A DNA stretch of 63,801 bases, the filler included, from Stramenopiles sp. TOSAG23-6 (lineage: Eukaryota): the NCBI GenBank assembly GCA_900128565.1. It is 10 parts of 10 records of this genome, joined end to end, with 100 filler letters (N's around TTAATTAATTAA, not from the genome) between each part and the next. Parts side by side here need not be neighbours in the genome. Positions count along the whole stretch, not along the records: positions 1 to 9,641 come from LT636361.1; positions 9,742 to 19,358 come from LT636362.1; positions 19,459 to 29,055 come from LT636363.1; positions 29,156 to 38,720 come from LT636364.1; positions 38,821 to 48,352 come from LT636365.1; positions 48,453 to 57,951 come from LT636366.1; 4 more parts are not named here. One strand, given 5' to 3'. Below are positions 3,612-51,281 of the stretch, piece by piece. The notes under the pieces were generated by a model that ran no database searches, was not told the DNA's origin, and worked only from the letters and a program-made list of their open reading frames with translations. Numbering within the stretch: the stretch's first letter is position 1; each line of letters begins with the position of its first letter. Both the position numbers and the translations under genes were made by a program.

Positions 3612-5849
3612 ATGAATCTTCAGTATGCAACAATAAAATGTCCCCAAGGTGCTAGAGAAGGTATGAATGTTGCAGTACTTGTGAACGCACAGCGTGTGGT
3701 AGTCACAGTGCCAAAAGGTATAAGACCTGGAATGCCATTTAGAGTGGCTGTACCCCGAGCCCCTCAACAGAAACGAAACTTGAGTATAAAGTGTCCTATG
3801 GGGTCATACCCAGGAAGTCGCATTCAAGTTAAAGCGCCAACAGGAGAAAATCTAGCACTCATTGTTCCACAAGGCGTCATGCCTGGTCAAATGTTTACTA
3901 TTGCGTATACACCAAAAGCGACAATGCAACGAAACCAGTCACGAAATCTTGAATATCAGCGTGTTCAGAAAGAAGCAAATGAGAATCGTAAGCTACTTCA
4001 GCGCGAATATGAAGAACGACAAAATACAATGAAAGAACGAAAACAAGACACTGAGAACCGAACTCGAGAAAGGAAAGAAAGTGCAGATCGAAGATTTGCA
4101 CTGAGACTACAAAAGGAAGAAGAAAGAAAACGAGCCCAGTACCTTCGAGAAAATGCAGTTAGAGAAAAACAACGTTTACGTAAAGAAGCAGAAGCGAAAA
4201 AACAACGTTTACGTAAAGAAGCAGAAGCGAAAAAACAACGTTTACATAAAGAAGCAGAAGCGAAAAAACAACGTTTACGTAAAGAAGCAGAAGCAAAACG
4301 TCGAGCAGCAGAGAAAAAAAGAAAAGATTTGGAAAAAGAAAAAATGGAAAAAATGTACGTGTTGTCTTTTATCATGATTTTTTCCAGATTTTTTTTTTTC
4401 ATACGAAATTTTCATAGAAAACAAAGAAAAAAACAGATTTTGAATGTGGTATCGTTGTAGTACCTTTGTTCATCATGAATGTAAATGTTTTCTTTTTTTT
4501 TAATTTTTTTTTTCTTTTTTGTTTTTTTTCTTTTTTTTCTTAAAAAAAATTTAAAAAAAAAAAAAAATTTTAATTGTATACCTAAACAAAACAATTCTAA
4601 TTTTTGAAATATTTTCCAAAATGTAGTAGACTGAGTGAAATGAAAAGGTTGGAGAGAATGTATGTTTTACTTTTTTTTTTTAACCAAAAAATCGAAATTT
4701 TTTTTTCGTACGAAATTTTGTACCTAACACATTTTTTTAGATTTTTTTGAAATATTTTTCCAAAATACATACGACAAAATGAAGTTGATAAAATAAAACA
4801 TAAATTTCCTGAAAAAAATGAAGCTGAAAAAGAAACAAATAAAAAAACCTTGAATTTTGGTTGGTCTGAGCAGACATCAGAAAAACATAATGGTCGGGTA
4901 TATTACTACAATAAGATTACGAATATATCACAATGGGAGTTTCCAGAAGAATGTCTTGACCCTAACCCTAATGTACCCTAACCCTAACAACCCCTAACCC
5001 TAACAAAAAAATATCATTTTTTTTTTTTTTTACTATAAAAAATTTGTACCTAACAAATTTTCCAAAAAAAAAAAAAAGAAAAAAATATTTTTTTACATAC
5101 ATTTTGAATCGAAAAAAAGTTCTATTTCTTCTACTGGACAACAAGATTTGGAAAAAAAGAAGTCTATAGTTACAATACATACTAATCGTTTCTACAATAG
5201 TATTCAAAACAACCCTAACCCTAATGCTAATCGGTTTCATAATAGTATTCAAAAAAGTCGTATTGGCAGTGCAAACATTTTGAATGATTCACGGAATCAC
5301 GTACAAATAGCGAAAAGGTTTCATAAATCTCCAAGAGACGTTCGTGTAGGTTTTTTTTTTCATACGAAATTTTATAGCTAATATTTTTTTTTTTTTTTTT
5401 CATACGAAATTTTATAGCTAATAATTTTTTTTTTATTTTTTTTTTTGTTGATACGAAATTTTATAGCTAATAATTTTCTTTTTACTTTTTTACTAAAAGA
5501 AACATACATATATATATATATATTGACAATACAGGAACATTTTCACATATCTGATGTGAATTTCGTTGCCGCGCGCTTTCATGTATGCTTTATTTTTTTT
5601 AATTTCGAATTTTTTTTTTTTTGATTTTCGTACGAAATTTTGTACCTAACGAAAACTTTTTTTTTTTTTTTGAAATATTTTTCCAAAATACATAGAAGTT
5701 CTAATGATATACGTAAGCGTGTAGTTGATGCGTGTAAAAATGTATCTAAATTTCATCGTTGTCCAGAAAATGTGAAAAAATATTCATATAGTGTAGAAGA
5801 TGTTTCAAAACGATTTCATCGAGATCCAAAATGTTTGTTAAAATACTAA
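3612..5849 (+). CDS. Multi-exon protein: two N-terminal CP-x-G..G..V.VP.G..PG repeats, coiled coil, WW domain, C-terminal RFH repeats
   Basis: Introns at 4355-4626 (internal structure uncertain), 4660-4770, 4973-5102, 5346-5534 and 5583-5693. The spliced frame contains LNFGWSEQTSEKHNGRVYYYNKITNISQWEFP (WW) and ends at TAA 5847-5849. Confidence 0.65.
4166..4298 (+). repeat. 33-nt coding tandem repeat x4 (KQRLRKEAEAK)
   Basis: aaacaacgtttacgtaaagaagcagaagcgaaa repeated four times with few substitutions. Confidence 0.9.
4660..4770 (+). mobile_element. GT-AT introner-like intron, 111 nt
   Basis: aga at|GTATGT...ttcgtacgaaattttgtacctaac...ccaaaatacAT|a cga caa; near-consensus copy with AT duplicated. 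Confidence 0.8.
5583..5693 (+). mobile_element. GT-AT introner-like intron, 111 nt
   Basis: ttt cat|GTATGC...aatacAT|aga agt restores an RFH-R repeat. Using the AG 2 nt downstream gives CAT AAG TTC TAA (stop). Confidence 0.8.
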
Positions 5850-5961
5850 ATAAAAATTCATGAAAATTTCAGATTTTTTCAGAATAAAAATGAATGAAAA
5901 TTTCAGATTTTTCCAAAATTAAAATGTTAAAATTAAAAAAAAGTTGAAATTGAGTTTATTA

Positions 5962-6774
5962 TCAAGGTTCAACAAAACGAATGTACTCTTTTTTTGAAGG
6001 CAATTCCAAAATGGAAACTTCACCAAACGTTTTTTCGCCAGATTTTGTGGAGACTCCAGGTAACAAAACTGCTTTTTCACCAGGGGTCCAATCGGCTGGT
6101 GTTGCTAGCATTTTCTGTTTTGTCAATTGTAAACTATCAATAACTCTTATGATTTCAGAAAAGTTTCGACCGGTACACGTATTCTGAAGGATATTACAGA
6201 AAAAAAATCGTTAGTTAAAAACGTTTTTAGGGTTTCCAAAACAAAAAAAAATTCAATTCAAGGTTTAAAACAAAAAAAAAATGATATTCAATCTTTAAAA
6301 CGTACTTGCAGGATAGGTAAGCATTAACTTAATCTTTCTATCTGGAGATACAATAAATACTTTGCGTACTGTCAAAGGCAAGCCAACCTCGTCAATATTT
6401 TCTTGGTCAAGCATATCGAGCGAATGAGCGATGGCCCGCGTCGGGTCAGCAAAAATTGGGAAAGTTGGTTTGTAAGTTGTAGCAGCATAGATGTCTTTGA
6501 TCCAAGCTACATGTGAACTAGCATCATTACAAGATAATGCTGCTAGTTTCACACCTCTTTCATCAAAAGAAGGCTGAAGTTTCGCAGCAGAACCCAGCTC
6601 TGTCGTACACACAGGTGTAAAGTCATCAGGATGAGAAAATAAAATTCCCCACGTTGGACTACCTTTAGCATCACTAAACACTTGATACAGTGATAATTTA
6701 CCAAGGCTAGATTCAGCAGAGAAATCCGGGATCTCATCGCCAAGTCGAAGTGTTTTACGGTCAGAAACTGCCAT
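5962..6774 (-). CDS. PRDX6: 1-Cys peroxiredoxin (Prx6 type); exons 6774-6306 and 6176-5962
   Basis: FSHPDDFTPVCTTELG active site; spliced junction gives YPASTGRNFSEIIRVIDSLQLT; C-terminal ATPADWTPG and LPSKKEYIRF. Confidence 0.92.
6177..6305 (-). mobile_element. Family intron with GT...GT ends, 129 nt
   Basis: gca a|GTACGT...aactaac...cagaatacGT|gt acc ggt cga; this register gives the conserved YPASTGRNF. Confidence 0.75.
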
Positions 6775-9523: not shown

Positions 9524-9639
9524 ACGTATTGTGAAAAAATATTTCAAAAAAAAAAAACTCAAATTTGTTAGGTACGAAATTTTTTTACGAAAAAAAACCA
9601 AAAAAAAAAAATTAAATTAGAAATTCATATAAAACATAC
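9524..9639 (-). mobile_element. Family element with GT...GT ends flanked by a GT duplication, 116 nt
   Basis: gt|GTATGT...gtacctaac...ttcacaatacGT|ccg gaa; only 2 upstream exon nt visible before the gap. Confidence 0.6.
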
Positions 9640-9641
9640 AC

Positions 9642-9740
9642 NNNNNNNNNNNNNNNNNNNNNNNNNNNNNNNNNNNNNNNNNNNNTTAATTAATTAANNN
9701 NNNNNNNNNNNNNNNNNNNNNNNNNNNNNNNNNNNNNNNN
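9642..9740. other. Artificial contig linker (N-run TTAATTAATTAA N-run); also at 19359, 29056, 38721, 48353, 57952, 59415, 60878 and 62340
   Basis: Identical spacer with stops in all six frames; flanking contigs are ordered by decreasing length. Confidence 0.97.
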
Positions 9741-9830
9741 NAAAAAAATCTAAAAAAATTTGTTAGGTACAAAATTTTTTTACCAAAAAAAAAAAATATA
9801 TAAATTAAAAATTGAGAAATGAAAACATAC

Positions 9831-11420
9831 GTGCAACATCCCTCAATAAGTCTGCGTTCTGAGTAAAGTTAGAAAGTAGCATGCGTACACGAGCAAAATA
9901 TTCAGTAGATGTTCCATGTATTTTAGAAAAATATTTCAAAAAAAAAAAAATTTTTTTTGGTTTAGGTACAAAATTTTTATAAAAACCAAAAAAAAAAACT
10001 TTCGATTTTTTTTTTTCGGTAAAAAAAAAAAAAAAGTAAAACATACATCATAACGATTAAATATCGCTTTTTCGATCTGTTCTGATAAATATTGGTAATC
10101 ATCTGATTGTCCACCATTTAATTTCTTTTGAAACATTGCGCGTGCCTTCTCTCGACGAGCTTGTTGATCTGCACTGCCTGCTGGTCGGGAAGGTTGTACT
10201 ACTGCCTCTCGTTTTGCTTTTTTATTCGAACGATTATCATGACCATTTTCATTTTTTCTTTTTGTTTTTTGTTGTACAACAGGAGACTCTAAAACTTGCT
10301 CTTTCCAATATCCTCGGAGGGCTTTCGCCATTAATTTAACACTATGTATTTTATAAAAATATTTCAAAAAAAATTCTAAAAAATTTGTTAGGTACAAAAT
10401 TTCGTACAAAAAATAAATTCATACAAAAAAAAAATAATACATACATCATTACTGTGTTTTCTCAAGCTATTAACATGTGACATTACACCAGTCTGGGCCA
10501 AATCTTCAAGTGTAATACCTTGAGTCTTCCACATTTTCTTCATTGCTCGTTTCACTCCCTTTTCGTCACATGTATAGTGAAAAACACGAAATCACATAAA
10601 AAATCGTTAGGTACGACATTTCGTACGAAAACCAAAAAAAAAATTTAGTTAAAAAATTGAAAAAAAAATAAACCATACATGGCACACAAGAGGCAGCTGT
10701 TTTTAAAGCATCGCGTAGAGTAATGAGTTTTTGCCTTCTGTCTTTACTTTCAAGTTTTCTCTTTGCCTCTGCAGCTTCTGCTTCTGCTTTCTTGATTCGT
10801 TTTCGTTCCGCAGCTTTTTCTTGCCTACGTTTCTTTGCTTTCCTCTTATTTTCCGCGATTCTTTTTTTTCGAATATGTATTTTTCAAAAATATTTCAAAA
10901 TTTTTTTACCAAAAAAAAAAAAAATGTTAGGTATACATTTTTCAAAAAAAAAAATAAATTCAATTTCAAATTTAAATTTAAATTTAAATTTAAATTTAAA
11001 AAAATAAAACATACATATTCCTCTTCAGAGTCACTTGACGAAGAACTAGAACTACTTGAACTACTCGATGTATTTTGAAAAAATATTTCAAAAAAAATCT
11101 AAAATTTGTTAGGTACAAAATTTCGTACGAAAAAATAAATAAATTCGAAATTGAAAAAAAATAAAAAAAAATCCAAAATTTGTTAGGTACAAAATTTCGT
11201 ACGAAAAAAAAAATTCAATTTCAAATTTAAAAAAAAAAGCAAAACGTACATGAACTTGAACTACTCGATGAAGAACTTGAATCAGATCTTGGTCGTTTCA
11301 ATGTTTTCTTTTGACCATCATCCATTGGCATATTCGAACTACTCTTTTTCAAATTATTATTTGAAGCATCAAAATCAGAATCATTTTTATCATTTTCATC
11401 ATCGGAAGATTTTTCATTTA
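9831..11420 (-). CDS. TFIIS-like protein (Ser/acidic region, coiled coil, TFIIS N-terminal and TFIIS central domains); partial, at least 6 family introns
   Basis: Removing GT..AT elements 11249-11068, 11014-10875, 10678-10570, 10444-10344 and 10046-9916 gives ITLEDLAQTGVMSHVNSLRKHSND|SVKLMAKALRGYWKEQV and IEKAIFNRYD|GTSTEYFARVRMLLSNF. Confidence 0.75.
10344..10444 (-). mobile_element. GT-AT introner-like intron, 101 nt
   Basis: aat gat|GTATGT...aaaatacAT|agt gtt aaa; inside the TFIIS N-terminal domain; the adjacent AG would frameshift. Confidence 0.85.
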
Positions 11421-11509
11421 TTTCAAAAAAAATCTAAAAAAAATTGTTAGGTACAAAATTTCGTACGAAAAAAAATCGATTTTTTTGTTTAAAAAAAAAT
11501 AAAACATAC

Positions 11510-17633: not shown

Positions 17634-19299
17634 ATGCAGCCAAAAAACACATCTCAAACACAACAAAAACGAACTTTATCTCGCCCAAAAGTCCATTGTT
17701 TCTGGCTCCCAAAGGAGACAAATATTACATCTGAAAATAGTTTACATATATATCGTTATCCAAGACGAGTTTTCGGTTCTCATAGCGCGGCATCTGTAAT
17801 TAATCGTATTCGCAACAATAAATTGAGAGCTGAAAATAAATCTTCAGTCTTTGACATAAAGTCCGAAAGTAAAGATAATGAAACAAATACATTGGAAACA
17901 TATAATATCAAAACACAAAATCAAAATAACGACATAAAAATGAACAATTTATCAATACGTCGATTGAATTGGTTTTCTTCTCGATCTTCTACGAAATTTG
18001 GTACAAATCTTTTGAAAACGTCTACTTTTCATAACCAAGAAAATATAGTAAATAGCACAAGTACTGAAAGTGAATTAGATCAACGCAACAAAGTTGATAG
18101 TGTTGTGTTCAAACAACTTTATTCTAAAAGCAGCACGGTTCTTGTCGATCTCATCAACTCATTCATACAGTATAAAAATGAATTTAAAAAAATGACAATT
18201 AGTGAAAATTCTGTACTATATGAAAATAAAGCTGAAAATTTTCAACAGACTAAAATCTCTCAAAAAAGTAGTGCTACCGTATTGTTTTCGGGTTATTTAA
18301 AAAAGCAAAGCCGGGGAGATAATCAATGGCATCGCATACTGTATGTTTTATTTTTTTTTCAATTTTGAATTTATTTTTTTCGTACAAAATTTTGTACCTA
18401 ACAATTTTTTTTTGAAATATTTTTCCAAAATACATTTCTGCAACAAATCATCGACGAATACTTCGAACATTTGAAAAACGTTATTTTGAACTAACAAAAA
18501 ATTATCTTTTTTTTTGGAAAAATGAAAAAAAAAAAAATAAACCTGAAATAATATCACTTGAGCTTGGTGTATGTTTTATTTTTTTTTCAAATTCGATTTT
18601 TTTTTCGTACGAAATTTCGTACCTAACAATTTTTTTAGATTTTTTTTTAAATATTTTTCCAAAATACATGCAAGTATCTCCGAGACTTTGGTCCATCACC
18701 ATTTCTTTTTAAAACGTAACGCAGAAAAATTTAGTTTCTTGTTGCATTCACCGCCTGTAGTGAATACTACGAACGGTCAAATTACAACAAAAACTTTATA
18801 CTTGGTTTGTTTATTTTTTTAAATTTCGAATTTATTTTTTTTTTTCATAGGAAATTTTGTACCTAACAAATTTTACAATTTTTTTTTTTTTTCACAATTT
18901 ATGTTTGTCCTTCACAAAAAGATAAAATGAATTGGAAGAAAAATATTTCAAATGTAATAACGTCTTTTCGTGTCAGAAATTCACAAGCCAATAGATCAAA
19001 TAAAACTGAAATGAATGGTACTTTAAATAGTGAAATAATCCCAAAAGTATTTATTGAATGGCTCATGTACGTTTTCAAAATTGAATGTTTTACCTATATA
19101 TTTTTTTCGTAGTACATTTTGTACCTAAGCATTTTTTTTTTTCGGTAAAAAAAATAAAAAATATTTCTTCACAATATATACAGAACATGCAAAAATCACT
19201 TCAAAGCTATTGTTCACTATGGAAAATTCAGATAGATGCTGATATTCTAACACAAGTCATTGATGGTATGAAACGCCAGGTGTATAGAAGAGGAGATGT
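17634..19299 (+). CDS. PH-domain protein, probably followed by a cNMP-binding-like domain; partial, 5 family introns
   Basis: Introns 18341-18435, 18569-18669, 18805-18902 and 19067-19179 (all GT..AT) give FSGYLKKQSRG...FEKRYFELTKNYLFFWKNE...TLYLVCPSQKDKMNWKKNI; frame ends at YRRGDV before the element at 19300. Confidence 0.75.
18569..18669 (+). mobile_element. GT-AT introner-like intron, near-consensus copy, 101 nt
   Basis: ggt|GTATGTTTT...ttcgtacgaaatttcgtacctaac...ttccaaaatacAT|gca agt; phase 0 in the PH domain. Confidence 0.85.
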
Positions 19300-19484
19300 G
19301 TACGTTTTCATTTCAATTTCGAATTTATTTTTTTTTTCGTACGAAATTTTGTACCTAANNNNNNNNNNNNNNNNNNNNNNNNNNNNNNNNNNNNNNNNNN
19401 NNTTAATTAATTAANNNNNNNNNNNNNNNNNNNNNNNNNNNNNNNNNNNNNNNNNNNNTTTTGAAATATTTTTCCAAAATACAT

Positions 19485-28128: not shown

Positions 28129-28834
28129 ATGGAGGCTATAAAGAAGAAAGAAATACCAAAGAAGAATATGAAAGGTAAAAGTAAAACAGTTACTTGTGAA
28201 TGTTGCTACTTGCGTCACAAATCTTGTCACAGGACTGATAACAATTCCCCGTGCGATTTCTGCGTCAAAGTAAGTTTCGTCAAATTATTATTTGTATATC
28301 TTGTTTATCATAGCTTCGGCAACAGATCGCCATATTTTTGTTCATCATTTCTCATATATCCTTCCATGGTGCATAAGTAAATTAACCAACTTATAACTTT
28401 TATATTCACACATTCCACAGATGGGAACAAAGTGCATCCCTCACCTTGACCTTCGTAAAAGTAAATCGAAACGGGTTAAATCATCAGGCAAGATAGTAAT
28501 TGAAAAAGGTGATATTATAAACTTTATCCCTGAAACTATTCCTGCTTGTCCTGATTGGGATCAGCGAATTTACGAGCGTTCAGTTCAACTAGTAAAACTC
28601 GCACTCTTTGCAAGAGCAACTCTAGTGTACCTTGTAAAGTCAGGGCGGACCAAGTTAGATGAAGAGATTTATGATGTAGTATGTGATTTCAAAAAATATC
28701 TTCTAGATCAAAAACGACCGGATTTGCTGAGGCTCGTTGATTTAGGTTATCAAATTAAAAACCCTACAATTATTACAATGTTTAAAGATATATCAAATAT
28801 TCGAAATTCGTTAGGTACGAAAAAAAATCGTTAG
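28129..28834 (+). CDS. Zn(II)2Cys6 transcription factor; canonical GT-AG intron 28270-28420; 3' end may be chimeric
   Basis: Spliced TCECCYLRHKSCHRTDNNSPCDFCVK|MGTKCIP; intron GTAAGT...ccacAG is unrelated to the repeat family. Confidence 0.65.
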
Positions 28835-28889
28835 GTACAAAATTTCGTACGAAAAAAAAATCGAATTTGAAAAAAAAATAAAAACATAC

Positions 28890-28994: not shown

Positions 28995-29155
28995 ATGTAT
29001 TTTGGAAAAATATTTGAAAAAAATCGTTAGGTACAAAATTTCGTACGAAAAAAAANNNNNNNNNNNNNNNNNNNNNNNNNNNNNNNNNNNNNNNNNNNNT
29101 TAATTAATTAANNNNNNNNNNNNNNNNNNNNNNNNNNNNNNNNNNNNNNNNNNNN

Positions 29156-29461: not shown

Positions 29462-29557
29462 AAGTATTTTGAAACAATATTTCAAAAAAAAAATCTAAAA
29501 AATTTGTTAGGTACAAAATTTCGTACGAAAAAAAATTTAAAAAAAAATAAAACATAC

Positions 29558-32500
29558 ATGGTCGATATCTCATACAAACATTATTGAATGAAACTGAACC
29601 ATTTTGTGGCCAATTTTGTAATCTATTCAGATTATTATGGGTACTACAAGTAGTAGGATTGATGTTATCATTTGTCAACAACTTTTGATTCATACCTGAT
29701 TTTTCTGATGGTGACAGGCAGCGACGTTTGCGCAACAATGGATCGCTTGGAAATGTCCATTCTGGTTCCTGAGGGATTGCATCACTGGCATAACGAAGTA
29801 GTCTTTCCAATGATGTCAGGCAATTGTTTAGTTGATTGATTATAAAGCAGTAATGCAGTAAAAAATAAGGAATAAGATATGAATAGGTTAATGCTAATGC
29901 GGCACCCGAAGGATTAAATGATTGTCGCTGCATTACAATTATAATGGCTGTTCCGGATGATATGACGGTTGATAAACTGTAACTTGCGGTTTGAGCCCAA
30001 GCTGTTAAAGATAATAATAAAAAGTTTTCCTTATTCCAAGCATCGATGGCAAAATTGAATCTTTTGGAATAATGTATTATGAAAAAATATTTAAAAATCG
30101 ATTTTGTTAGGTACGAAATTTTTATAGTAAAACAAAGAAATTCAAAATTCAAAATTGAAATGAAAACGTACATACAACTCAAGATTCATTGCGCGAATAA
30201 CAACGCGACCACAAACAATTTCACCGAGTATTGATTGTATTGGACTCATTAAGTTATTCCGCTCTCTACCTACTTTACGAGCAGCTCTATTGACTAAAAT
30301 AGTCACATATCCAAAAGCACTGCCTGCAAGCAAAAGAATAGGTGCAATTAGTGGAACAAGAAAAATGACGAGGAAAATCAGCGCAAGTAAGACACATGTA
30401 AATTGCATAAAATTATCAAAGAAGCGCGGAACATTTAAATCGACCATGCTAATATCTGTTGAAAATCGAGATAAAATTCGCCCCGCTGGAGTCTCCTCAT
30501 ACCAACTCATTGGAGCATGTAAAATATTTTTAACACAAATATAATGTAACCTTCTACTACTATTAACTCCAGCGTCTGTAAATAGACTACTAGTGAGTAT
30601 TAGGCTTATCATATAACCTAATGTCAACGCTGCATATGTAAGAATATATGGAAGACTATCTTTAAGATCAATATGTCCTCCATTTTGTTCTTGTTTCTTC
30701 TCAGACCAATTAACCCAATAGGCCAAAAATCTATCGCTTCCAGCCATTAATCCATAGCAAATAGTACATACCAGAACAGCCAATGTCGTTCTAAAATATC
30801 CCATACCTTTTACGTATTGAAAAATAATATCTCTTTGAAATGATCCCTTTTCACGGTGTTGATTTTGGATGAGGCCCAAATGTTCTGTGTCACTTTGTGT
30901 ACAATCCTGCTCTTCTGACGGAGAATTATTTTGCACGGTTTGTGTAGCTCTACTTGATAATTTATCATCGGAACTTTTATCATTTTTCTTATTTTCGTCG
31001 TCTTCAAATGAAAATAATTTCGCAAAATTTTTATTTGATGCATAAAGATTCTTAAAAGAGTCAGTCCCCTCAATTACACCATCATTGATATATATGATTG
31101 AATCAAACTCATACTCTTTTAGTAGATGTAATTGATTCAGTACCATAATAGTGCAAGGTCGTGTTCGATGAACAAATTTAGGTTTGGGTTTACTTGAATC
31201 GATACTTTTTAATTGTGTAGGAGTTTTATGACTACACGCATCAATGCACTTACTATTTTGGTTCAACTTGATTTTGTCTTGAACTTTCGGAGATTCCTCT
31301 AAAATTTGATGTTCAAATATAGCATTTTTAAATATGTGTTGTGCTACACCTGAATCAACAGCGGCTAATGGATCATCAAGTATCAATAAATCTGGTTGAC
31401 TATATAATGCCCTGGCTAATGAAACACGTTGTTTCTGTCCACCACTCAAAGTTACACCGCGTTCTCCAATTTCGGTTTCTTCGAATTTCGGAAGTAATTT
31501 AATATCTTCTGTTAATGCACATGCAGAAATTATATTTTCATAATGTGATTTCTTCATTTCATGATTCATAAGAATATTTTCTTTTAAAGTTCCACTCATT
31601 ATAAAGGGTGTCTGAGGCACATATCCAATATTTATTCGATTAGAAATTGCTTTGCAGGATGAAACTATGGAAATATTTTGGATTGTATTCGTTTTCTGAG
31701 TATTTAGTGTCTCTGTTCTAACAATTTCTAATTCATCCAGAATAGCATTCAGAAAACATGTTTTCCCACAACCAACAGTACCCACAATGGCATATATTTT
31801 TCCTTTTTCAAAATTAATTTTCTTATGACAGAAAAGTGAGAAAGAATTTGTTGTGTATGAACCATCTGATGCACTTCTATTTTGACTCTCTTTAACATCA
31901 ATACAGTCTTTACTACCTGATGTAAACATTGAACTATTCATATCATTTATTGTAGCATTTGTATTATTTACCGACGACGGCCATTTGTATTTTCCAATAA
32001 TTGAAGCTACAATATTTTCCTTTCTTGCTTCATTCGTAAGTTTTGAATCTCGTAATACACCATGATGAATTCTATTTTGATTACTTGTGTATTGTACAGC
32101 TTTACTATTCTCATCTAAAAGAAGGAAATTTCTTACTCTGTCCATCGAAACCATAATTGTGGCAACATGTGTTACGCCTTCAGGAATTAAGATCAGAGGA
32201 AGCCGAAGAGACATAATCACATTTAGAGCTGCGAAAATATCAGCTGCATTCATTGCATTACCCATTAGCGAGTGATAAATAAAGCAAGTAGCGGCAGCGA
32301 TAGGTGGTGACGCCCGACCAAGTTGAACAATGTATTGTGAAAAAATACGCCAAGTTCGAAATTTGTTAGGTACAAAATTTGGTATAAAAACACAAATTAA
32401 AATTCATGATAAAAAAGGTACGTTGTCTGAAGATAAAGTCGGAATTTTTTAATATGCTGACATTCGTTTTCTCTCGCAACTGTCAACAGCTCAAAAAATG

Positions 32501-32563: not shown

Positions 32564-32653
32564 ATGTATTTTGGAAAAATATTTCCAAAAAAATCGTTAG
32601 GTACAAAATTTCGTACGAAAAAAAAATCAAATTTGAAAAAAACTAAAACATAC

Positions 32654-35324: not shown

Positions 35325-37241
35325 TTAAAACACTGGAGATATATCAATATGTTTATCCCAGAAATCACATTGACGCTGACGAAGATCAGCTATAGGTACA
35401 ATACCAATTTCATTTGTGTTAAAACCATCAAATTGAAGTGCAATTTCTTGTGTTGTATTCAAAAATTCCGGCCATATACTGTGATAGTGACCAAATGAGT
35501 TTCTTACTTGAGGTTTTCCCGTCATTGCAAATGTTCTCCACATTGTTGACATTTTCTTAGAAAGTTTTTTTTCTTTTGTTCCATGAATTTGAGATAATGT
35601 TTGACCATGTGGCGCTTTAGTAACATGAAATGTAAATGGAATATCATCTGCATGAGATGCACCTTGACCAGGAGGACTTGCCACTGGTACATGTGAAAAG
35701 TAGTACCAAAATGCTGAAGTTTCGTTCAATTTATTATTAGGAATTGATGAAGAGAACCACCTGGCAGCTCTCCTGGCTGGACAAGTTTCTTCACTATCTG
35801 CTAGTAAATGAATAAGTCCCCAATAATATCTAGAATATTCATCACCTTGATTTCCAGGATTTCGTTGTTCCTCTGGGGGATATAAATCAACTATTTGTGC
35901 TGTTAGGGTTTTATTACCAAATGAGATCATTTCATCTATAAAGTTGAAAAATGTATTGTGAAAAAATATTTTTTACTTCTTGGTATACAAAAATTTGTTA
36001 GGTACAAAAATTTTGTAGTAAAATTTTTTGTTTTTACATTCATGATGAAAAAAAAAATGTTTAGGTACAAAATTTCGTACCAAAAAAAAAACTAAAATAA
36101 AATAAAAATAAAACGTACATTCAGTTTTAGTACAATTTGTATTAAAATCTGGAAATGTGGAATCTTCAGCAACACTTCCTACAATTATAGACACGCCAGG
36201 AGCTCTATACTTTGATCCGCGTTGGGCTAGTTTCCATGGAACATCTAGAAGAGTTACACCATCAATCGTTGGAGAATACCCAGATGATGATTGCGCTTGG
36301 GCTTCTAAAAGCTTCTCTGTTGTGGTGTTGTGTCGAAGACAGTGCAAGACATTTCGATGAGTTTTGCTCTCACAATTAGTATATTTTACTACGCGGTCAA
36401 AATCTTCATTGGTGCTGATCCAATCATTTGATATCCACGTCGCAAATGCACCTGATTGAAGTGAAGCGCGGGAAAATGTACCCCATGAATTTTTACTTAC
36501 TAGATGAACTGAGACACTGCCAGCACCAGCACTCTCCCCACTTAGTAATATTTGACTAGAATCACCACCAAAAGCAGAAATATGTCTTTTTACCCATTGC
36601 ATAGCTAAGCGTTGGTCAAGTATTCCCCAATTACCACTTGATCCTACATCATCAGGGTAAGGGCTATAGTTTTTAATATTCATAGTATTATTTCCAGGAC
36701 CAGCACGTAGAGTCTCTCCACCAAGGAAACCAAATATTCCAAGCCGGTAATTTATAGTAACTATTACAAATCCAGCATCTAATTTATCTGCAAGCTCAAC
36801 CGCAAATGTTCCATTTAGTCTTGCTTCATTACTGGATCCTCCGGTAAAACCACCACCATGAATATATACCATGACAGGTGCAGGAGGTCTAGATCTAGAA
36901 GCCTTTTGAGTGGGACAATAAATGTTTAGGGTTAGGCATGACTCATCAAAGCGAACTCCATCTGGTGGTTTGAAATCAGGCGTTTGCATGCAGCTCGATC
37001 CATATGACGTTGCATTAAATACAGCGTGTCCATATTGATACTCACTGTCCCACGTTTTAGGAATTGGTGGACTGAAACGAACGGGAGGTTCTGCATAAGG
37101 AATTCCTAAAAACATTTCATAATGTGTAGAAGAAAGACCTCGTAATGTACCAATATTAGGTACTTTAACGTCAACGAAAAAGGCACCATTTAAAGAAAAC
37201 CAATTCAAAAGATATAGCAACGTAGAGATCAAAGTTTTCAT
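35325..37241 (-). CDS. Type-B carboxylesterase (secreted); GT-AT intron 36118-35951
   Basis: Signal peptide, FLGIPYAEPP, ESCLTLNI, HGGG, NYRLG, GESAG nucleophile elbow and GASHADDI; gaa t|GTACGT...aatacAT|tt ttc joins the two ORFs. Confidence 0.9.
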
Positions 37242-38397: not shown

Positions 38398-38556
38398 TTA
38401 TGACAGAAAGAAACTTCTCACGAAAAACAAAAAAATCTAAATAAATTGAAAAACTAGAATTGTTTCATTTTAATTCTCAAAAATCACTGGAACTATATTC
38501 TGTGTTCCCCTTTTAAAATGTAAAAGGGCAAAACTTTTATAAACCAATATGGATGT

Positions 38557-38720
38557 TTACACTGTTGGTGTAGAATACCAATCTTGGAACTCTTCAAAAG
38601 TCAACATACCATCTTCATCAACATCGGCTTCATCAAAGGCTTGGCGGGCAGTAACATCCGCCAGTTCTTCTGGACTGACTCCACCCATACGTTCTAATGT
38701 ACCTGGTTGAGTTTCATACA
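38557..38720 (-). CDS. C-terminal fragment of an EF-hand protein
   Basis: SPEELADVTARQAFDEADVDEDGMLTFEEFQDWY then stop. Confidence 0.7.
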
Positions 38721-38918
38721 NNNNNNNNNNNNNNNNNNNNNNNNNNNNNNNNNNNNNNNNNNNNTTAATTAATTAANNNNNNNNNNNNNNNNNNNNNNNN
38801 NNNNNNNNNNNNNNNNNNNNTAATGTATTTTGTAAAAATATTTCAAAAAAAAAAAAAAAAATTGTTAGGTACAAAATTTTCAAAAAAAAAAAATCATACA
38901 AAAAAAATTAAAACATAC

Positions 38919-41700: not shown

Positions 41701-44060
41701 TCATCTAGAATCAAAATCATGTACATTAAATTGTGACGCGAGGCGTAATTGCTGCAGTTGAAGCGTCATGGATTCCACAACCCATATATCTTCACTACTC
41801 CACATAGTCATAGATGACTCTAATTGATCAGCATATTCTTTGTTGTTTCTAGCAAATTTACGCGCTTCACTAAGTGAGTTTAGTAAACCTGTATGAGTAT
41901 TACATGATATATGAGCAGCAATTTCTGTTGTAGCCAATATGGCACCAATACAATTGGCTCCTCGAGTTTTTGTCAGAGTAACAAGAATATTCGTTAGTCT
42001 CGGTAAAAGTGTAGCATGTGCAGTACAAAGTGCATCTGAGACCATGGGTTCATCTTCAATAAGAGCTGGTAAAGCAGGCAATAAAAAACACAATGGATCA
42101 ACTTTTGAAACATCTTGAAGTTTTGATCTTTTTGGGTTCCAGACAAAAAGAAACGGCATTGTTCTATTTACGTGTCCCCGTAATGAATTTGTTTCCTCCG
42201 CCAACCAACGTCCAATTGCTCTAATCGCGGCAACTAGTAAATGTTCTATCGTAGGTGAAAAGACATTTTTACAAACTGAACTTTTTCCGTTCTGCGTTGC
42301 TAACGCATTTTCCCGTTTTTCAAAAACTTTGGCTGCCTCTGATATGAAATCAAATACTAATTCCGCACAATGATTAAGTGTTTTTAGTAAATTATACTGA
42401 GCACCACTAGGAAGAGACGTCCATAGTTCATCACTATTGATATTTTCTTGAATGTTTTCATCATCATTATCTTCTTCTCCGCATAAAAATAAAATAACAA
42501 TCTCCATCGCTGCAAAACAAAACGGTAACATTGTAGTTACACGATTCTCCTGTAATGCGTTTAATAACTTCGGAGGCTCTGCGACGGCAGATACCGTAGA
42601 TTCGGCGGATGTACCATCTGGAACGGGTCTCATAGGTCGTTGCTCTACATTTATAGAATCCCCATCCAAATTGGACTTTTCATCATCTTCTTCATTTTCC
42701 GCTCGGGTTTTCATTATTTTTTCATTTGTTTTTCGCTTTCGCTCCTCCCAAAGCTTAACACTTACAGCGATACTTTCTTCAGATAGAGGATCTAATAAAG
42801 TCTCGGCATCATGTACATGTGAAAGAATATTTACATTCATTATTTTTTGTTAGATACATTTTTTTCATAGTACAAATTTTGGTACAAAAAAAATTACATT
42901 CAATTTTGAAAACGCACATCAAGCACCAGTTTCAAATCTATTGCTACTAATCTGAACCACAATTCAATGAACTGTCCCTTTTGTTCTAGATTAGCTTCTA
43001 GTATCCAAGATTGACCGCATTTTTGTAAAAGAGTTAGAATTAAACATAATGATTTATCTCGAATTCGGATAGGTAAACCACGAATTCTCAGTAATTGTAC
43101 GAGACCACTTCTCAAATTATATGCCCATTCTTTATATGTATGTTTGATTAAATGAATCGGTATAATTTTGACTAAAGTATCCAGAATAGCAAGAAAGGTC
43201 CATTGCATTGGCGTTTCAACATTTGCAAATATAAACACTACCTCATTGAATAAAGAAATGGGCGATTCCGCGCCTTTTGAAAATTGTTCAAAAGAACTGC
43301 GTTGTAATACATCTAATAACAGCATTGAGCCAATAGTGACAACTTCCTGACTTAAAGTATTATTTTCACTAACATTGTTCTCAGGAGATTTCGTATTCAT
43401 TTTATCACCAGAGGATTTCTCTTCCTTTTTTGGATTCTTCTTTCTATTGCTTGATACAGTTATGTTTTTAATCACACGTGATATACTGATAATAAGTGCA
43501 TTAATCGCAGCTGCATTAAGCACACGAAAAGAACAAGCAGGTGAACTTGAGACTAATGAGTTAAGACATACAAAGCAGTCACGCAATATCAGCAGTTCTT
43601 CTTTACAGGTAACAGGTGAATCGTGGACGATTTGTACAATACCTGGAATTATATCTGAAAATAGAGAAGCCACACGTTTATCCTCAAAAAACATAGAAAG
43701 AATATTCAGGGCTGTAGTTTTCTGTTCTTTGTCCTTACTATTAAACATTCGTCGTAGGAAAACTGGACCCATCGCTTTTAAAAGCTGACGGCGCACGTTT
43801 GCCAGAGGGACACCAAACTTGGACTGAAATGAAGATGAAGACTGATCAGTATTGGAAGTATCTGTATTCTCACTTGTACCCGTTGAAGATTCACTTAAAA
43901 ATGGCAGAATATACTTTGCAGCGAAAAGTAGACCGGCAATCTTATGTTCATCTGTACTTCCGCGAAGAAGAAGCAAACACTCTTTGAGAGAGGTTTTAGA
44001 GGCCACGACATTTGGTACTTTTGGTCGTGTCTGAGGCTCTTCATCCTTCGTGCTTCCCAT
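41701..44060 (-). CDS. NCDN: Neurochondrin family protein; GT-AT intron 42917-42811
   Basis: LKECLLLLRGSTDEHKIAGLL, AMGPVFLRRM, AIRAIGRWLAEETNSLR and FLLPAL; gat|GTGCGT...gtacAT|gat joins the ORFs in phase 0 (3' boundary could be 6 nt upstream). Confidence 0.75.
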
Positions 44061-48352: not shown

Positions 48353-48505
48353 NNNNNNNNNNNNNNNNNNNNNNNNNNNNNNNNNNNNNNNNNNNNTTAA
48401 TTAATTAANNNNNNNNNNNNNNNNNNNNNNNNNNNNNNNNNNNNNNNNNNNNTTTTGTACCTAACAAATTTTAGTTTTTTTTTGAAATATTTTTCCAAAA
48501 TACAT

Positions 48506-48965: not shown

Positions 48966-51281
48966 TTACTCTTTATCTTCATCAAGCAATAATACTGAAT
49001 GCTGACCACCGGCACCAATCATTAATACATCACCCGAAATACCATTTACCAATCGAGGTAATTTTTCATCAGATTCTCGTCCATGTATTTTGGAAAAATA
49101 TTTCAAAAAAAAAAAAANTGTTNGGNACAAAANTTCGTATGAAAAATAAATTCGAAATTGAAAAAAAATAAAATATACATGGCCTAGTTGTCCCATATCT
49201 CCAAAACCCCAAGTATACACCGCACCATCTGTAGTTAATGCCATCGAGTGATTTGCACCACACGCAATAGCCTTTGATCGAATAGATGACTCACCAATAT
49301 TTACTATTATTGGATTAGGTTGTCCATATTTCAAAACATTTAGAGGCGACAAACCCAATTGACCACTATCTCCACGTCCAAACGAAAACACTGTACCATC
49401 TGCAGTCAAGGCTAGTGAATGATGAACACCTCCATCAAATGCAACAGCTTTGCCATGTAAAGCCACATCAGGTAATGCAACATGAGCAGGCATAATTTGT
49501 GGAGAATTCTTATTACCAAGACCTAGTTGACCATAATTATTGAGACCCCAAGCATACGCTCGACCACTTCGCATAATCACAAAAGTTCGATAACCACAAC
49601 AAAATACGCGATGTACTTTTCGATCTTGCATCTCACATTTTGCTATTTCTTTTTTTGACATTGTTTTATTTCGCTCTTTATTAGCTAATTTATCTGATTC
49701 ACTTTCAACTCTCTTCCGAAATCCAACTCGATATGGAGCTAGACCATTTTGTTTGTGTCTCTCACTAACTTTCCGAGCTAACTGTCCATGTTCACCATCC
49801 CCCCACACGGCAAGATTGCCTTCTTCATCTAGAGCACACGTATGATGTGCCCCACTAGACACTTGAATGATATGATTATTCATACAAGCGTCTTCTAAAG
49901 GCATTCTTATAGGTCGTGATTGCTTTTCATACTTATCCATCTGATTTTTTTTAAAGCCAATATATCCATTACTATCTTTATACGTACCCCAAGTCCATAC
50001 ATCACCACTAGCCGTCAAAACAACTGTATGACAATCTCCACACTCAACTTGAACGACTATACGTCCTTTGAGACCACCACCGACAATACCAGGAACAGAT
50101 TCTCCACCTGGATACACATTATATTTACGATATAAACGTAAGTAAAGTTCATCAATGTGACCACCTATCTTATATTTTTCAACAATTTTAGTGATTTTCT
50201 TCAAATCTGCTTTTTCAGGAGCAAATTCCGAATAAAATGCCATTAAACGTTGTATAGGATCGCCATTTGAATCACGACCAAGTGCCTCATCATCATTACA
50301 ACCCCAAGTATAGAGTACCCCATGTGCAGAAACAGCAGCGCTATGTATTATGAAAAATATTTTTTTAGTAAAAAGAAATGTTAGGTATGGNGTTTTCATT
50401 AAAAAAAAAAAAAAAAATTGATGATGAAAACGTACATGTAATCCGCCAGCAGCAACATAAGCTATTTTAGAATCATTTTTGTCAAAATATGAAGTTAAAA
50501 CCTGACGAGGTGTTAGTTCTGCCATTGAACCATCTTCGTGGAGAGACTTGCCGTGACCTAATTGGTCACAGTCACCACTACCCCAAGAATATACGGAACC
50601 AGAATGAACAGCAGCACCCAAGTCCACAAATTTCTCATCATTTGTTTTTTTCATTTTTGTAGTCACTTCACTAGAGCTACACTCACTAGCATTATTACTT
50701 GAATCGATTTGTTTTTTATCTACTTTTCGTCGTTTTTTTGACCTTGGGACAGCAGAAGGTAACACAAAATCAACGTCAAATGAGCGTTTTTTTGTAACAT
50801 TGGAAGCCTCATTTTCTTTTTTGTCAGTTGAAGTAGTAGCTGCATTAAAAACTACAGAAGAACCCCCGAAAGACATTGTCCCACCTGCACCAAGAGTGAA
50901 ACCCCCACTTGAAGCAGTAGTTGTTACGTTAGCAGAGGAATCAAAAGAAAAGCCACCAGTCGTTGCTGTTGTGGTGGCATCAGTAGAGCCGAAAGTAAAT
51001 CCAGCAGTTGAGTTACCATTATTCTGAATTTGAGCACTCCCACCAAACGTGAATGCACCACTATTTTGTGAAGTAGTATCTCCTCCACCAAAGTTGAAGG
51101 AAGTCCCACTGGTGGTAGTTTTTGCATCTGCAGAAACAGTGCTTTTATAACCTTGGCGTTCTGCTCCGCAGCTTATACATTTAATACGCTTTGCGTCTCT
51201 ATTTATAGTATTACAAACATGGCATTGCCAGTCACCTTTTTTGCGACCAAATTTAGCGAGGACCTCAGCACTCCACCCCAT
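48966..51281 (-). CDS. RCC1: RCC1 (RanGEF-like) with N-terminal RanBP2-type zinc finger and FG repeats; GT-AT introns 50435-50343 and 49178-49083
   Basis: GDWQCHVCNTINRDAKRIKCISC; FNFGG/FTFGG/FTFGS repeats; RCC1 blades WGSGDCDQLG, WGCNDDEALGR, WGTYKDSNG and WGLNNYGQLG. Confidence 0.85.
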   Translation of the reverse strand: MGWSAEVLAKFGRKKGDWQCHVCNTINRDAKRIKCISCGAERQGYKSTVSADAKTTTSGTSFNFGGGDTTSQNSGAFTFGGSAQIQNNGNSTAGFTFGSTDATTTATTGGFSFDSSANVTTTASSGGFTLGAGGTMSFGGSSVVFNAATTSTDKKENEASNVTKKRSFDVDFVLPSAVPRSKKRRKVDKKQIDSSNNASECSSSEVTTKMKKTNDEKFVDLGAAVHSGSVYSWGSGDCDQLGHGKSLHEDGSMAELTPRQVLTSYFDKNDSKIAYVAAGGLHVRFHHQFFFFFLMKXPYLTFLFTKKIFFIIHSAAVSAHGVLYTWGCNDDEALGRDSNGDPIQRLMAFYSEFAPEKADLKKITKIVEKYKIGGHIDELYLRLYRKYNVYPGGESVPGIVGGGLKGRIVVQVECGDCHTVVLTASGDVWTWGTYKDSNGYIGFKKNQMDKYEKQSRPIRMPLEDACMNNHIIQVSSGAHHTCALDEEGNLAVWGDGEHGQLARKVSERHKQNGLAPYRVGFRKRVESESDKLANKERNKTMSKKEIAKCEMQDRKVHRVFCCGYRTFVIMRSGRAYAWGLNNYGQLGLGNKNSPQIMPAHVALPDVALHGKAVAFDGGVHHSLALTADGTVFSFGRGDSGQLGLSPLNVLKYGQPNPIIVNIGESSIRSKAIACGANHSMALTTDGAVYTWGFGDMGQLGHVYFIFFQFRIYFSYEXLXXTXFFFLKYFSKIHGRESDEKLPRLVNGISGDVLMIGAGGQHSVLLLDEDKE
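49083..49178 (-). mobile_element. GT-AT intron, 96 nt (in frame, hidden inside the ORF)
   Basis: ggc cat|GTATAT...aatacAT|gga cga restores GQLGH|G; contains a few N bases. Confidence 0.85.
50343..50435 (-). mobile_element. GT-AT intron, 93 nt (in frame, hidden inside the ORF)
   Basis: tta cat|GTACGT...atacctaac...aatacAT|agc gct restores VAAGGLH|SAAVS; the AG 2 nt downstream would frameshift. Confidence 0.9.

Follow-up and report, generated by a model that had tools for sequence, protein, structure and literature searches.

A likely high-copy, introner-like family of introns with non-AG 3' ends in Stramenopiles sp. TOSAG23-6

Introduction

Did the repeated introns of Stramenopiles sp. TOSAG23-6 arise from a transposon, or do their ends only look like those of a transposon? 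The source organism is an AT-rich marine protist that looks uncultured. A sequence-only reading took these introns for transposon-derived introners with terminal inverted repeats, a preference for AT targets and a 2-bp target-site duplication that serves as the 3' splice site. The window, which is the whole stretch of DNA analysed (63,801 nucleotides, covering some 64 kb of this genome), consists of separate contigs strung together with linkers of the form N44-TTAATTAATTAA-N44, and therefore an apparent copy at 19300-19484 consists of the halves of two different introns. Both ends were placed for 31 introns of 90-182 nt, and at least nine more copies are truncated (Table 1). The repeat profile was built on 7 seed copies and searched with nhmmer at E <= 0.01. 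The flank background was the frequency of AT before GTA in ORFs of at least 200 codons, and flank matches were compared with those obtained when the 3' dinucleotides were shuffled 100,000 times.

Table 1 Introns and partial copies of the family in the window (flank, two exon bases before the donor; paired dinucleotides, flank/3' end)
Positions	Strand	Feature	Flank and 3' end	Remarks
2..62	+	truncated family copy, window start
454..560	-	intron, family copy	TT; ...AAAATAT	frame kept (197 and 56 codons)
1103..1197	-	intron, family copy	TT; ACAT	frame kept (251/184 codons)
4660..4770	+	intron, subfamily A	AT/AT
4973..5102	+	intron, telomere-like repeats at 5' end	AT; ACAT	frame kept (74/92 codons)
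5583..5693	+	intron, subfamily A	AT/AT
6177..6305	-	peroxiredoxin intron, diverged copy	AA; ATACGT	homology
9524..9639	-	intron, subfamily A	GT/GT	5' flank is the contig's last 2 bases
9742..9830	-	family copy, 5' part, cut by contig end	AC
9916..10046	-	intron, subfamily A	AT/AT
10344..10444	-	intron, subfamily A	AT/AT
10570..10678	-	intron, family copy	AT/AT
10875..11014	-	intron, subfamily A	AT/AT	frame only with second-longest downstream ORF
11068..11249	-	intron, internal 74-nt duplication (two cores)	AT/AT
11416..11509	-	intron, truncated 3' block	3' end uncertain	frame not kept at 11416
18341..18435	+	intron, subfamily A	CT; ACAT	no GT/GC-AG alternative
18569..18669	+	intron, subfamily A	GT; ACAT
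18805..18902	+	intron, family copy, GTTTGT donor	TG; TTAT
19067..19179	+	intron, subfamily B	AT; ATATAT	AG 4 nt downstream out of frame
19300..19358	+	family copy, 5' part, cut by contig end	GT
19459..19484	+	different copy, 3' part, start of next contig	ACAT
28800..28889	-	family copy, duplicated branch-site block	TT; 3' end unplaced
28995..29055	-	family copy, 3' part, cut by contig end	ACAT
29462..29557	-	intron, subfamily A	AT; ACTT	frame not kept; in-frame ends after ATAC or ATACTTG
30072..30171	-	intron, subfamily B, ABC transporter	AT/AT	ORFs 744/206 codons
32330..32421	-	intron, subfamily B, ABC transporter	AC; ACAT	no GT/GC-AG alternative
32564..32653	-	intron, subfamily A	GT	frame only with GT two bases upstream as donor
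35951..36118	-	intron, two cores, carboxylesterase	AT/AT	ORFs 377/207 codons
38823..38918	-	intron, subfamily A	AT/AT	contig end 2 bases beyond
42817..42917	-	intron, neurochondrin-like gene, donor GTGCGT	AT; CACAT	ORFs 383/371 codons
48118..48217	+	diverged copy, ordinary GT-AG ends	AG/AG
48453..48505	+	family copy, 3' part, contig start	ACAT
49083..49178	-	intron, subfamily A, RCC1-repeat gene	AT/AT	junction GQLGH-G
50343..50435	-	intron, subfamily B, RCC1-repeat gene	AT/AT	junction GGLH-S; no GT/GC-AG alternative
55245..55345	-	intron, patatin-like gene	AT; 3' end ambiguous	ATAC+AA at 55250, after ATAC at 55247, ACAG at 55245
55658..55774	-	diverged copy, patatin-like gene	TT; ATACTG
55949..56059	-	intron, GTAAGT donor, family core	GT; ATATAT	fits ORFs of 32 and 65 codons
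57859..57951	-	family copy, 3' part, cut by contig end	ACAT
60983..61080	-	intron, subfamily B	AT; ACTT	contig end 5 bases beyond
63745..63800	-	family copy, 3' part, window end	ACGT

Anatomy and copy number of the repeat family

Nearly all introns of the window are copies of a single repeat. The profile finds 39 matches, seeds included, and a 22-nt core occurs 23 times at up to 2 mismatches compared with 0 in 100 shuffles. Each copy starts with a yeast-like donor, GTATGTTTT or GTACGTTTT, carries the core in its middle, the end of which resembles a branch site (...GTACCTAAC), and closes with a T-rich block whose last bases are ...AATAC and a further dinucleotide, mostly AT. The donor GT is present in 31/31 introns. 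Every placed copy lies sense to its gene, with no antisense case among the 31 complete ones, and no copy was seen outside genes in the window. Two subfamilies, A with GTAT donors and B with GTAC donors, have linked 5' and 3' variants: AAAATAC ends are found in 11 of 16 introns with a GTAT donor versus 1 of 12 with a GTAC donor (Fisher P = 0.002). The end blocks of subfamily A depart from consensus at 15 of 384 sites (3.9% per site). Whole blocks are duplicated internally in some copies, such as the 74-nt duplication in 11068..11249, and the two ends pair weakly, with fold z-scores between +0.66 and -2.59. The core is absent from the diverged copies 6177-6305, 48118-48217 and 55658-55774; because all three lie within intact ORFs, the core is dispensable for removal.

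Across four public runs, summed depth at the bins that hold copies reaches 204,291 (X1) and 40,307 (X2) versus about 136 and 6.5 alongside. In X1, a DNA run, 1802 of 22,991 contigs map to a 9.5-kb stretch for which a handful would suffice. Six of 20 contig ends lie within 8 nt of a copy, while copies make up 4.7% of the window. Searches of the accessible sequence collections gave no match to the core, and a search with the ABC transporter gene found no close relative.

With dozens of almost identical copies of a single short intron in its genes, the protist seems to carry an intron family that copies itself. That so many similar introns occupy unrelated places in genes makes a high-copy introner-like family likely, and this part of the transposon-derived introner proposed from the sequence alone is supported by the core counts, the two subfamilies, the low divergence of subfamily A and the excess of X1 contigs, whereas a MITE with a 2-bp duplication is unproven. 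We consider it probable that almost every intron of the window belongs to one repeated family of introner-like mobile introns of 90-180 nt, which may spread through either DNA or RNA. The copied unit would be identical to the spliced unit, new copies would preferentially land behind ...(A)T, and the spliceosome would set the 3' cut at an ...ATAC-N-T/G motif instead of YAG.

Splice boundaries

Among 28 testable introns, 22 stay in frame once the GT...ATAC+2 unit is removed (1/3 expected, P = 1.2e-6), and two further introns of the 28 fit with the second-longest ORF. Other boundaries are needed in the remaining 4/28 (11509, 29557, 32653 and 55345). Cryptic exonic sites provide some GT/GC-AG alternative in 25 of the 28, and three introns (18341, 32421 and 50435) have no in-frame, stop-free alternative of this type.

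Aligned to human PRDX6, exon 1 of the peroxiredoxin gene reaches residue 151 and exon 2 resumes at residue 153, with the split codon A-GT encoding Ser. A TGR[NSD] motif is present in 102 of the 120 best peroxiredoxin homologues and is preceded by YPAS or YPAT in 102/102; the alternative GC...CAG cut would read YP-NTC-TGRNF. A textbook pyrimidine tract with CAG, 7 nt upstream of the end ATACGT of intron 6177-6305, is skipped. Both junctions of the RCC1 gene, GQLGH-G and GGLH-S, read as in other repeats of the same protein. Because ORFs and protein homology need GT...ATAC+2 units to be removed, the 3' ends are not AG. Frames and protein motifs together show that the 3' end is AT (also GT, TT, TG and AG) and not the nearest AG. 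For most single introns, the non-AG end is predicted from likeness to the proven ones, and the 18 introns with equal flanks fit more than one cut register. In one metatranscriptome run, contigs end at the copies, and none of the 15 matches listed contains a joint across an intron.

Flanking dinucleotides and terminal repeats

Among the 31 introns, the dinucleotide that follows ATAC (or its variant) is AT 24 times, GT, TT and AG twice each and TG once. On the exon side, the dinucleotide next to the donor GT is AT in 19, GT in 4, TT in 3 and AA, CT, TG, AC and AG in 1 each, and position -1 of the exon is T in 27/31. AT precedes the donor far more often than in the background (62/649, 9.6%; binomial P = 1.9e-12). 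Both dinucleotides are equal in 18/31 introns, namely 16 AT/AT, GT/GT at 9524-9639 and AG/AG at 48118-48217, which reproduces the earlier count of 18. The GT/GT case lies at a contig edge, where two known bases are followed by N, and the AG/AG copy has diverged and has the usual GT-AG ends. Both matches are as expected of a real duplication.

These flanks raise the alternative that GTAT...ATAC is a non-autonomous DNA transposon (MITE), which inserts at AT and duplicates it, the second copy becoming the intron end. The 18 matches, the excess of AT before the donor, the short inverted repeat ATGTATGTT / AAAATACAT (9 nt at 89%) and the frame restored by unit removal in 22/28 introns all speak for it, and some published introners take a splice site from a duplication, as described in the available portions of PMC9860276 and PMC11282704. 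However, shuffling yields a mean of 15.25 matches with P(>=18) = 0.077, which at n = 31 has weak power and is not proof of absence. Since 18 matches are about what two separate AT biases give, a target-site duplication is not shown; the sequence-only reading had named a lack of covariation beyond the AT bias as a refuting result, and at this P value the claimed 2-bp duplication is not supported in its stated form. The 3' AT is retained in 8 of 12 introns with a non-AT 5' flank, and the exon -2 base of subfamily A is not A in 4 of 12 copies, compared with 3.9% divergence within the element.

The inverted repeat fares no better. GTAT(G)TTTT and AAAATAC are complementary in 11/31 introns, all of subfamily A. 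Only GTA/TAC complementarity is left in the GTAC... subfamily, which multiplied all the same, and the repeat is too short for a MITE (4-9 nt, flank AT included in the best 9 nt) and coincides with the splice junctions. The exclusively sense, genic copies also argue against a MITE, as does the lack of a transposase among the 40 ORFs of the window, on which both analyses agree. The 2-bp duplications of known transposon superfamilies are TA, unlike the AT flank seen here. A MITE that duplicates its AT target is unlikely. The seeming inverted repeat (AT-GTAT...ATACAT) and duplication are apparently two splice-junction consensuses that are mutually reverse complementary by chance, and here they are indistinguishable from transposon ends and a transposon footprint.

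Alternative cuts and origins

A further alternative concerns the cut and not the origin: the AT-flanked introns may be AT...AC introns (ATGTATG...AATAC) removed by an AT-AC-like or minor-type spliceosome. The 16 AT/AT introns yield an identical product whether read as GT...AT or AT...AC. Spliceosomes tolerate intron ends with a first A and a last C, and a few U12-type introns have GT-AT ends; both fit such a cut, as does the branch-like CCTAAC, which is close to the U12 consensus. However, 12/31 introns lack AT before GT, so that their first two bases would be arbitrary under this cut, while GT is invariant. A peroxiredoxin cut shifted two bases to the left gives Cys, whereas the homologues have Ser or Thr in 102/102. 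The donor is GTATGT and not RTATCCTT, and the branch-like motif, as counted on the sequences, lies 32-42 nt from the 3' end, a distance too great for U12-type introns. We regard an AT...AC cut as quite improbable.

It is still harder to reconcile the data with ordinary immobile introns, whose likeness would reflect unusually long splicing signals under selection without any copying. The conserved blocks do occupy the places of donor, branch site and acceptor, GTAYGTTTT and ATAC+2 are retained in diverged introns, and the orientation is sense throughout. However, about 60 conserved positions per intron far exceed known signals, the three coreless introns reside in intact genes, the linked end variants of the subfamilies are not compensatory, whole blocks are internally duplicated, and contigs break at the copies. 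This explanation is very improbable.

Elimination at the DNA level, as of the dinucleotide-bounded IESs of ciliates, would suit short, AT-rich elements with inverted ends, exact removal and repeated dinucleotide borders in many copies, but it is scarcely credible given 31/31 sense copies with a donor and a branch-like motif, an AT flank rather than TA, long ORFs in the standard code and no DNA contig spanning a removed copy among the joints listed.

Comparison with known systems

The mobile-intron family favoured here shares features with several systems. U12-type introns with rare GT-AT ends also start with GT, end with AT and have an acceptor not defined by AG, but their donor and branch-to-acceptor distance differ. 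Fungal introner-like or direct-insertion elements likewise have no demonstrable duplication or inverted repeat in the available part of PMC9860276, show a strong gene bias and have a copied unit that equals the spliced unit. Unlike the present family, they have canonical GT-AG ends without such a dinucleotide preference.

The MITE-like introners of Micromonas pusilla and Aureococcus anophagefferens are short, almost identical introns that occur by the thousand at unrelated sites in the genes of these marine protists. They resemble the TOSAG23-6 family in that removal restores the coding sequence and one splice site possibly comes from the insertion site (PMC11282704 and PMC9860276, in part). 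They have clear locus-variable 3-8 bp duplications, defined inverted repeats and canonical GT/GC-AG ends, whereas in TOSAG23-6 the flank match is an AT consensus only, the 4-9 nt inverted repeat is limited to a single subfamily and the introns have a non-AG 3' end.

In Amoebophrya (Syndiniales), some of the non-canonical introns are introner elements. These too are repeated and lack GT-AG ends, and they have brief direct repeats over the exon/intron borders, inverted ends able to pair and, in the portion available, no internal transposase (PMC7789003). Their inverted repeats of 8-20 nt, direct repeats of 3-5 nt and lack of fixed terminal dinucleotides differ from the invariant GT, strong donor and branch motif, weak end pairing and one dominant 3' motif in TOSAG23-6.

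The AG-AC and AG-AT introns of the tunicate Fritillaria borealis share non-AG 3' ends (...AC/...AT) and a pre-intron exon motif repeated at the 3' end, and the available text of PMC11282704 proposes for them a MITE origin and a spliceosome tolerant of such ends. Their donor is not GT and their host is an animal, whereas TOSAG23-6 has a perfect GTAYGT donor and a single dominant family.

Intron copies, consensus and subfamilies

A profile built from seven seed copies finds 39 matches in the window at E <= 0.01, the seeds counted (nhmmer), and the 22-nt core of the intron family occurs 23 times with at most two mismatches, versus none in 100 shuffles. Both ends can be placed for 31 introns, which are 90-182 nt long with 10-25% G+C, and at least nine further family introns are cut off by contig or window ends. 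ABC, RCC1, esterase, patatin and neurochondrin genes, among others, carry such copies. As is characteristic of introners, many of the introns resemble one another from end to end although their gene positions are unrelated. No intron clearly unrelated to the family is seen in the window: the diverged introns (peroxiredoxin 6177-6305, 48118 and 55774) still have family blocks in common, and introns lacking the core are still present in intact genes. The exact core has no match in metagenome_contigs, genome_contigs or viral_contigs. No description of the family was found in a partial coverage of the literature on introners with duplications, GT-AT introns, the branch-like motif and single-cell stramenopile genomes, and one may be in print.

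The donor consensus of the family is GTATGTTTTA. Among the 31 introns, GT is invariant and is followed by A (29/31), T or C, G (27/31) and TTTT. The 3' end carries AATAC at positions -7 to -3 (26-30 of 31 per position), and the last two intron bases are A in 26 and T in 28 copies. Variants at the two ends are linked (11/5 versus 1/11; Fisher P = 0.002) and define a subfamily with a GTAT donor and an AAAATAC 3' block and a second, GTAC-donor subfamily with the ends GTACGTTTTC ... TTTTCA(C/T)AATAC. The end blocks of the most uniform subfamily (n = 12) deviate from their consensus at 15 of 384 sites (3.9%). Whole blocks are duplicated inside several copies, as unequal recombination between copies, or a fusion of adjacent ones, might produce. 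Ten sites match the motif TTCATCATGAATG with at most two mismatches where 4.8 are expected; 3 of 100 shuffles reach 10, and the excess is marginal. The motif lies in the 5' part of GTAC-donor introns and also directly after two gene ends.

Gene content and make-up of the contigs

The G+C content ranges from 26 to 41% across the window, and long ORFs are found under the standard code. The genes are eukaryotic and include a protein kinase, an ABC transporter, RCC1 repeats, S-adenosylhomocysteine hydrolase, a 1-Cys peroxiredoxin, a carboxylesterase, a guanylate-binding protein, neurochondrin and patatin, among others. For the S-adenosylhomocysteine hydrolase, identity is 90% with one EukProt protein, 89% with one JGI protein and about 72-76% with stramenopile proteins. 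The 719-aa exon of the ABC gene matches only two loci (33% and 26% identity), both set aside as orthologous loci for an empty-site comparison. Sequencing runs containing stretches of the window come from one coded organism and from seawater metagenomes.

The window is divided by ten N-blocks, nine with the form N44-TTAATTAATTAA-N44, into a series of separate contigs. Which contigs stand side by side across a linker is biologically meaningless. Contig sizes decrease roughly along the window, from about 9.6 kb each to about 1.36 kb each. Single N bases stand within otherwise good sequence, four of them inside one intron copy, and the consensus quality of the assembly is low in places. One ORF-poor stretch of tandem repeats looks satellite-like and is without family copies. 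Telomere-like CCCTAACCCTAA occurs 13 times with at most one mismatch (0.08 expected in the window); several of these sites lie inside ORFs, where they encode Asn-Pro-Asn-Pro, and three consecutive units span the exon/intron border at 4973. An Rfam scan of the window finds no snRNA and no other RNA family.

Positions of features in the window
Feature	Positions	Description
Linkers	9642-9741, 19359-19458, 29056-29155, 38721-38820, 48353-48452, 57952-58051, 59415-59514, 60878-60977, 62340-62439	N44-TTAATTAATTAA-N44
N-block	57387-57432	N46
Single N bases	49118-49133, 50391, 20296, 21795, 24159, 54367	
Internal block duplication	11090-11236	74 nt twice
Internal block duplication	5351-5491	three units
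Internal block duplications	28804-28842, 35951-36118	with the two above, introns holding two or three cores
TTCATCATGAATG	4469, 8281, 36037, 61061	six weaker sites in addition
CCCTAACCCTAA	270, 760, 4960-5003, 5213, 9249, 26903, 36926, 51393, 54899, 55016, 62065	telomere-like
Tandem repeats	14913-16857	304- and 411-nt units (90-96% alike), 106- and 215-nt units
Coding repeat	8424-8743	low complexity; 24-nt unit x13.6 in a 424-aa ORF, minus strand
Coding repeat	4165-4298	low complexity; 33-nt unit x4.1, 97% identity

Position of the intron ends

When introns are taken from GT to the second base after ATAC, the reading frame is kept in 22 of 28 testable introns, three introns adjoining N being excluded, where one third is expected (P = 1.2e-6). 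Two of the six failures (11014 and 56059, named like all single-coordinate introns by the donor end) fit when the second-longest ORF is used, and the other four (11509, 29557, 32653 and 55345) require other ends. Because cryptic sites provide some in-frame, stop-free GT-AG or GC-AG alternative for 25 of the 28, leaving only 18341, 32421 and 50435 with none, ORF logic alone is insufficient.

The ends are settled, as judged from homology, by two conserved proteins, the peroxiredoxin and the product of the RCC1-repeat gene. Exon 1 of the peroxiredoxin, whose closest homologue is 57% identical, aligns to human PRDX6 through residue 151 (...YPA) and exon 2 from residue 153 (TGRNF...), so that exactly one residue is split by the intron. 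With the ends GT...ATACGT, the split codon is A/GT (the slash marking the junction here and below), which encodes Ser. The motif TGR(N/S/D) is present in 102 of the best 120 peroxiredoxin homologues, the remaining 18 not fitting the search pattern, and is preceded in all 102 by YPAS (91) or YPAT (11). With the sole canonical alternative, GC...CAG, the product is YP-NTC-TGRNF; shifting the cut leftwards by two bases yields Cys. In this intron, a pyrimidine tract, a CAG and an ACTAAC branch site of textbook form are present. Since homology fixes its ends, the intron runs past the tract and the CAG to an ATACGT end 7 nt beyond. Its first four bases (GTAC) recur as the first four of the next exon. 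In the RCC1-repeat gene, junction 1 reads ...GDMGQLGH/GRESDEKLP... and mirrors the gene's own repeat GDCDQLGHGKS..., and junction 2 reads ...AAGGLH/SAAVSAHGVLYTWG... and mirrors its own repeat GANHSMALTTDGAVYTWG. The carboxylesterase is uninformative, since alignments to solved structures end 13-29 residues before the junction and resume at least 47 after it.

In 18 introns with equal flanks, the sequence agrees equally with GT...AT and with AT...AC two bases to the left; GT...NN is favoured by the peroxiredoxin and by the invariance of GT. Contigs from the public metatranscriptome run X7 and three DNA runs over 29160-38700 stop at the copies and are uninformative on splicing, and the 15 joints listed there (186 more exist) are repeat-to-repeat jumps. 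The non-AG acceptor would be the more surprising result of this analysis, its weight depending on RNA confirmation.

Proposed inverted repeat and target-site duplication

The sequence-only reading ascribed to the family a terminal inverted repeat and a 2-bp target-site duplication. The best inverted repeat, ATGTATGTT / AAAATACAT, is 9 nt long at 89% with the flank AT counted in. The pair GTAT...AAAATAC is found in only 11 of the 31 introns, and the second subfamily retains just GTA/TAC. The inverted repeat is unproven. What resembles one appears to be the 5' junction (AT/GTAT) and the 3' junction (ATAC AT/), which are mutual reverse complements. End-to-end pairing in RNA is rejected as its main cause, because folds of six copies are weak (a 4-bp GUAU/AUAC helix in three of six minimum-energy structures; z-scores from +0.66 to only -2.59) and no change at the 3' end compensates for a C at donor position 4.

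The flank count behind the proposed duplication is reproduced exactly: in 18 of 31 introns the dinucleotide after ATAC is identical to the exon dinucleotide preceding GT (16 AT, one GT and one AG). Such matches are largely expected from two biases. AT precedes the donor in 19 of 31 introns versus 62 of 649 (9.6%) positions before GTA in long ORFs (P = 1.9e-12), exon position -1 is T in 27, and the 3' dinucleotide is AT in 24. Because the 3' AT is almost fixed, two independent AT biases alone predict 15.25 matches. The observed 18 thus show no covariation beyond the AT bias (P = 0.077; 100,000 shuffles), as far as 31 copies show, and such a lack of covariation was among the outcomes that the sequence-only reading named as refuting. 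Flank matches occur in two of the seven introns that do not end in AT; one is a GT match whose flank is the final two bases of a contig, and the other is an AG match in a diverged copy with ordinary GT-AG ends. Eight of the 12 introns with a non-AT flank nonetheless end in AT. Flank base -2 departs from A in 4 of 12 copies of the most uniform subfamily, a departure too frequent for a young AT duplication when the end blocks differ at only 3.9% of sites. A 2-bp duplication is unproven. Matching patterns across a family cannot separate duplication from insertion preference, according to the available part of Gozashti et al. (PMC9860276), and the present AT/AT pattern is a case in which the two are inseparable.

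Probable mobility and spread

Several lines of evidence favour copying over long splicing signals as the source of the likeness among copies: the linked end variants, the internal block duplications, the core-less introns in intact genes, contig breaks and depths in public runs. Six of 20 contig ends lie within 8 nt of a match, though matches make up 4.7% of the window. The summed depth of copy-holding bins is hundreds to thousands of times that of adjoining bins; it is not a copy number and indicates only very many copies. Of 22,991 contigs from the public DNA run X1, 1802 map onto the 9.5-kb stretch 29160-38700. A 5764-nt X1 contig over 29555-32565 has 28 base differences and three gaps and retains both introns inside, so a second allele, strain or paralogue has the same introns.

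An introner-like origin of the family, the part of the sequence-only reading that stands, is likely; the inverted repeat and duplication attached to it do not share that standing. Similarity among copies stops at the last intron base (seen in the loose ends at 32564). The copied and the spliced unit would be one and the same, in agreement with the intron unit itself having inserted behind ...(A)T, and such an insertion may have used a DNA or an RNA route. A cut-and-paste MITE should show well-defined inverted repeats, a duplication specific to each locus, insertions in either orientation and also between genes, and a partner element with a transposase. The pure form of this explanation, a MITE with an AT duplication, is improbable. 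Matching flanks, at 18 of 31 versus 15.25 expected and 2 of 7 among non-AT ends, are what it offers for a locus-specific duplication. Terminal inverted repeats that reach about 10 bp and are shared across the family are not found, and all 31 complete copies are sense relative to the ORFs on either side. No copies are seen outside genes in the window, which is gene-dense and gives limited power. As had been noted from the sequence, the window has no transposase, none being found in the 40 ORFs that reach 150 aa.

A broader reading is put forward tentatively and at somewhat less than even odds. Almost all introns would derive from one mobile intron. The spliceosome would no longer read AG and would cut two bases after ATAC (at AT, GT, TT or TG), even past a perfect pyrimidine tract and CAG. 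The 5' and 3' junctions are mirror images. Invader and splicing machinery would each have changed the other, and it may be the excised intron itself by which the family spreads, not cut-and-paste.

Implications

Bursts of intron gain are currently best explained by introners, and their movement and the tolerance of the spliceosome for them are open questions. Here, one family seems to stand behind nearly every intron seen, with the textbook donor and branch site kept and the AG acceptor abandoned. If confirmed by RNA, the family would be a clean natural system in which to study how a 3' splice site is chosen without AG and would test whether an intron family can spread without transposon inverted repeats and duplication. 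Gene finders restricted to GT-AG will mis-annotate nearly every split gene of the organism, and assemblers break at family copies.

Comparison with known intron classes

U12-type introns have the donor consensus RTATCCTT and the branch site TCCTTAAC 10-26 nt from the acceptor. The family does not fit them: its donor is GTATGTTTTA, 32-42 nt separate its branch-like GTACCTAAC from the 3' end, and no snRNA is found in the window. Internal eliminated sequences of the ciliate type are TA-bounded, orientation-free and removed from DNA; here the flank is AT, and all copies are sense with a donor and a branch motif.

Other systems resemble the family in part, as far as the available portions of their descriptions go. 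Introners of Micromonas and Aureococcus have duplications, inverted repeats and canonical ends. Amoebophrya introner elements have non-canonical ends, direct repeats and inverted repeats (PMC7789003), and AG-AC and AG-AT introns of Fritillaria repeat an exon motif at the 3' end (PMC11282704). Fungal elements are gene-biased with neither a duplication nor an inverted-repeat footprint, and direct-insertion introners have also been described (PMC9860276). Non-canonical introns of diplonemids have G/C-rich inverted ends (PMC12621601) and do not resemble the present family. In contrast to the Micromonas and Aureococcus, Amoebophrya, Fritillaria and fungal elements, the present family combines a perfect GTAYGT donor, a CTAAC-type branch motif and a fixed non-AG acceptor motif. 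Unlike these four, it also seems to monopolise the introns.
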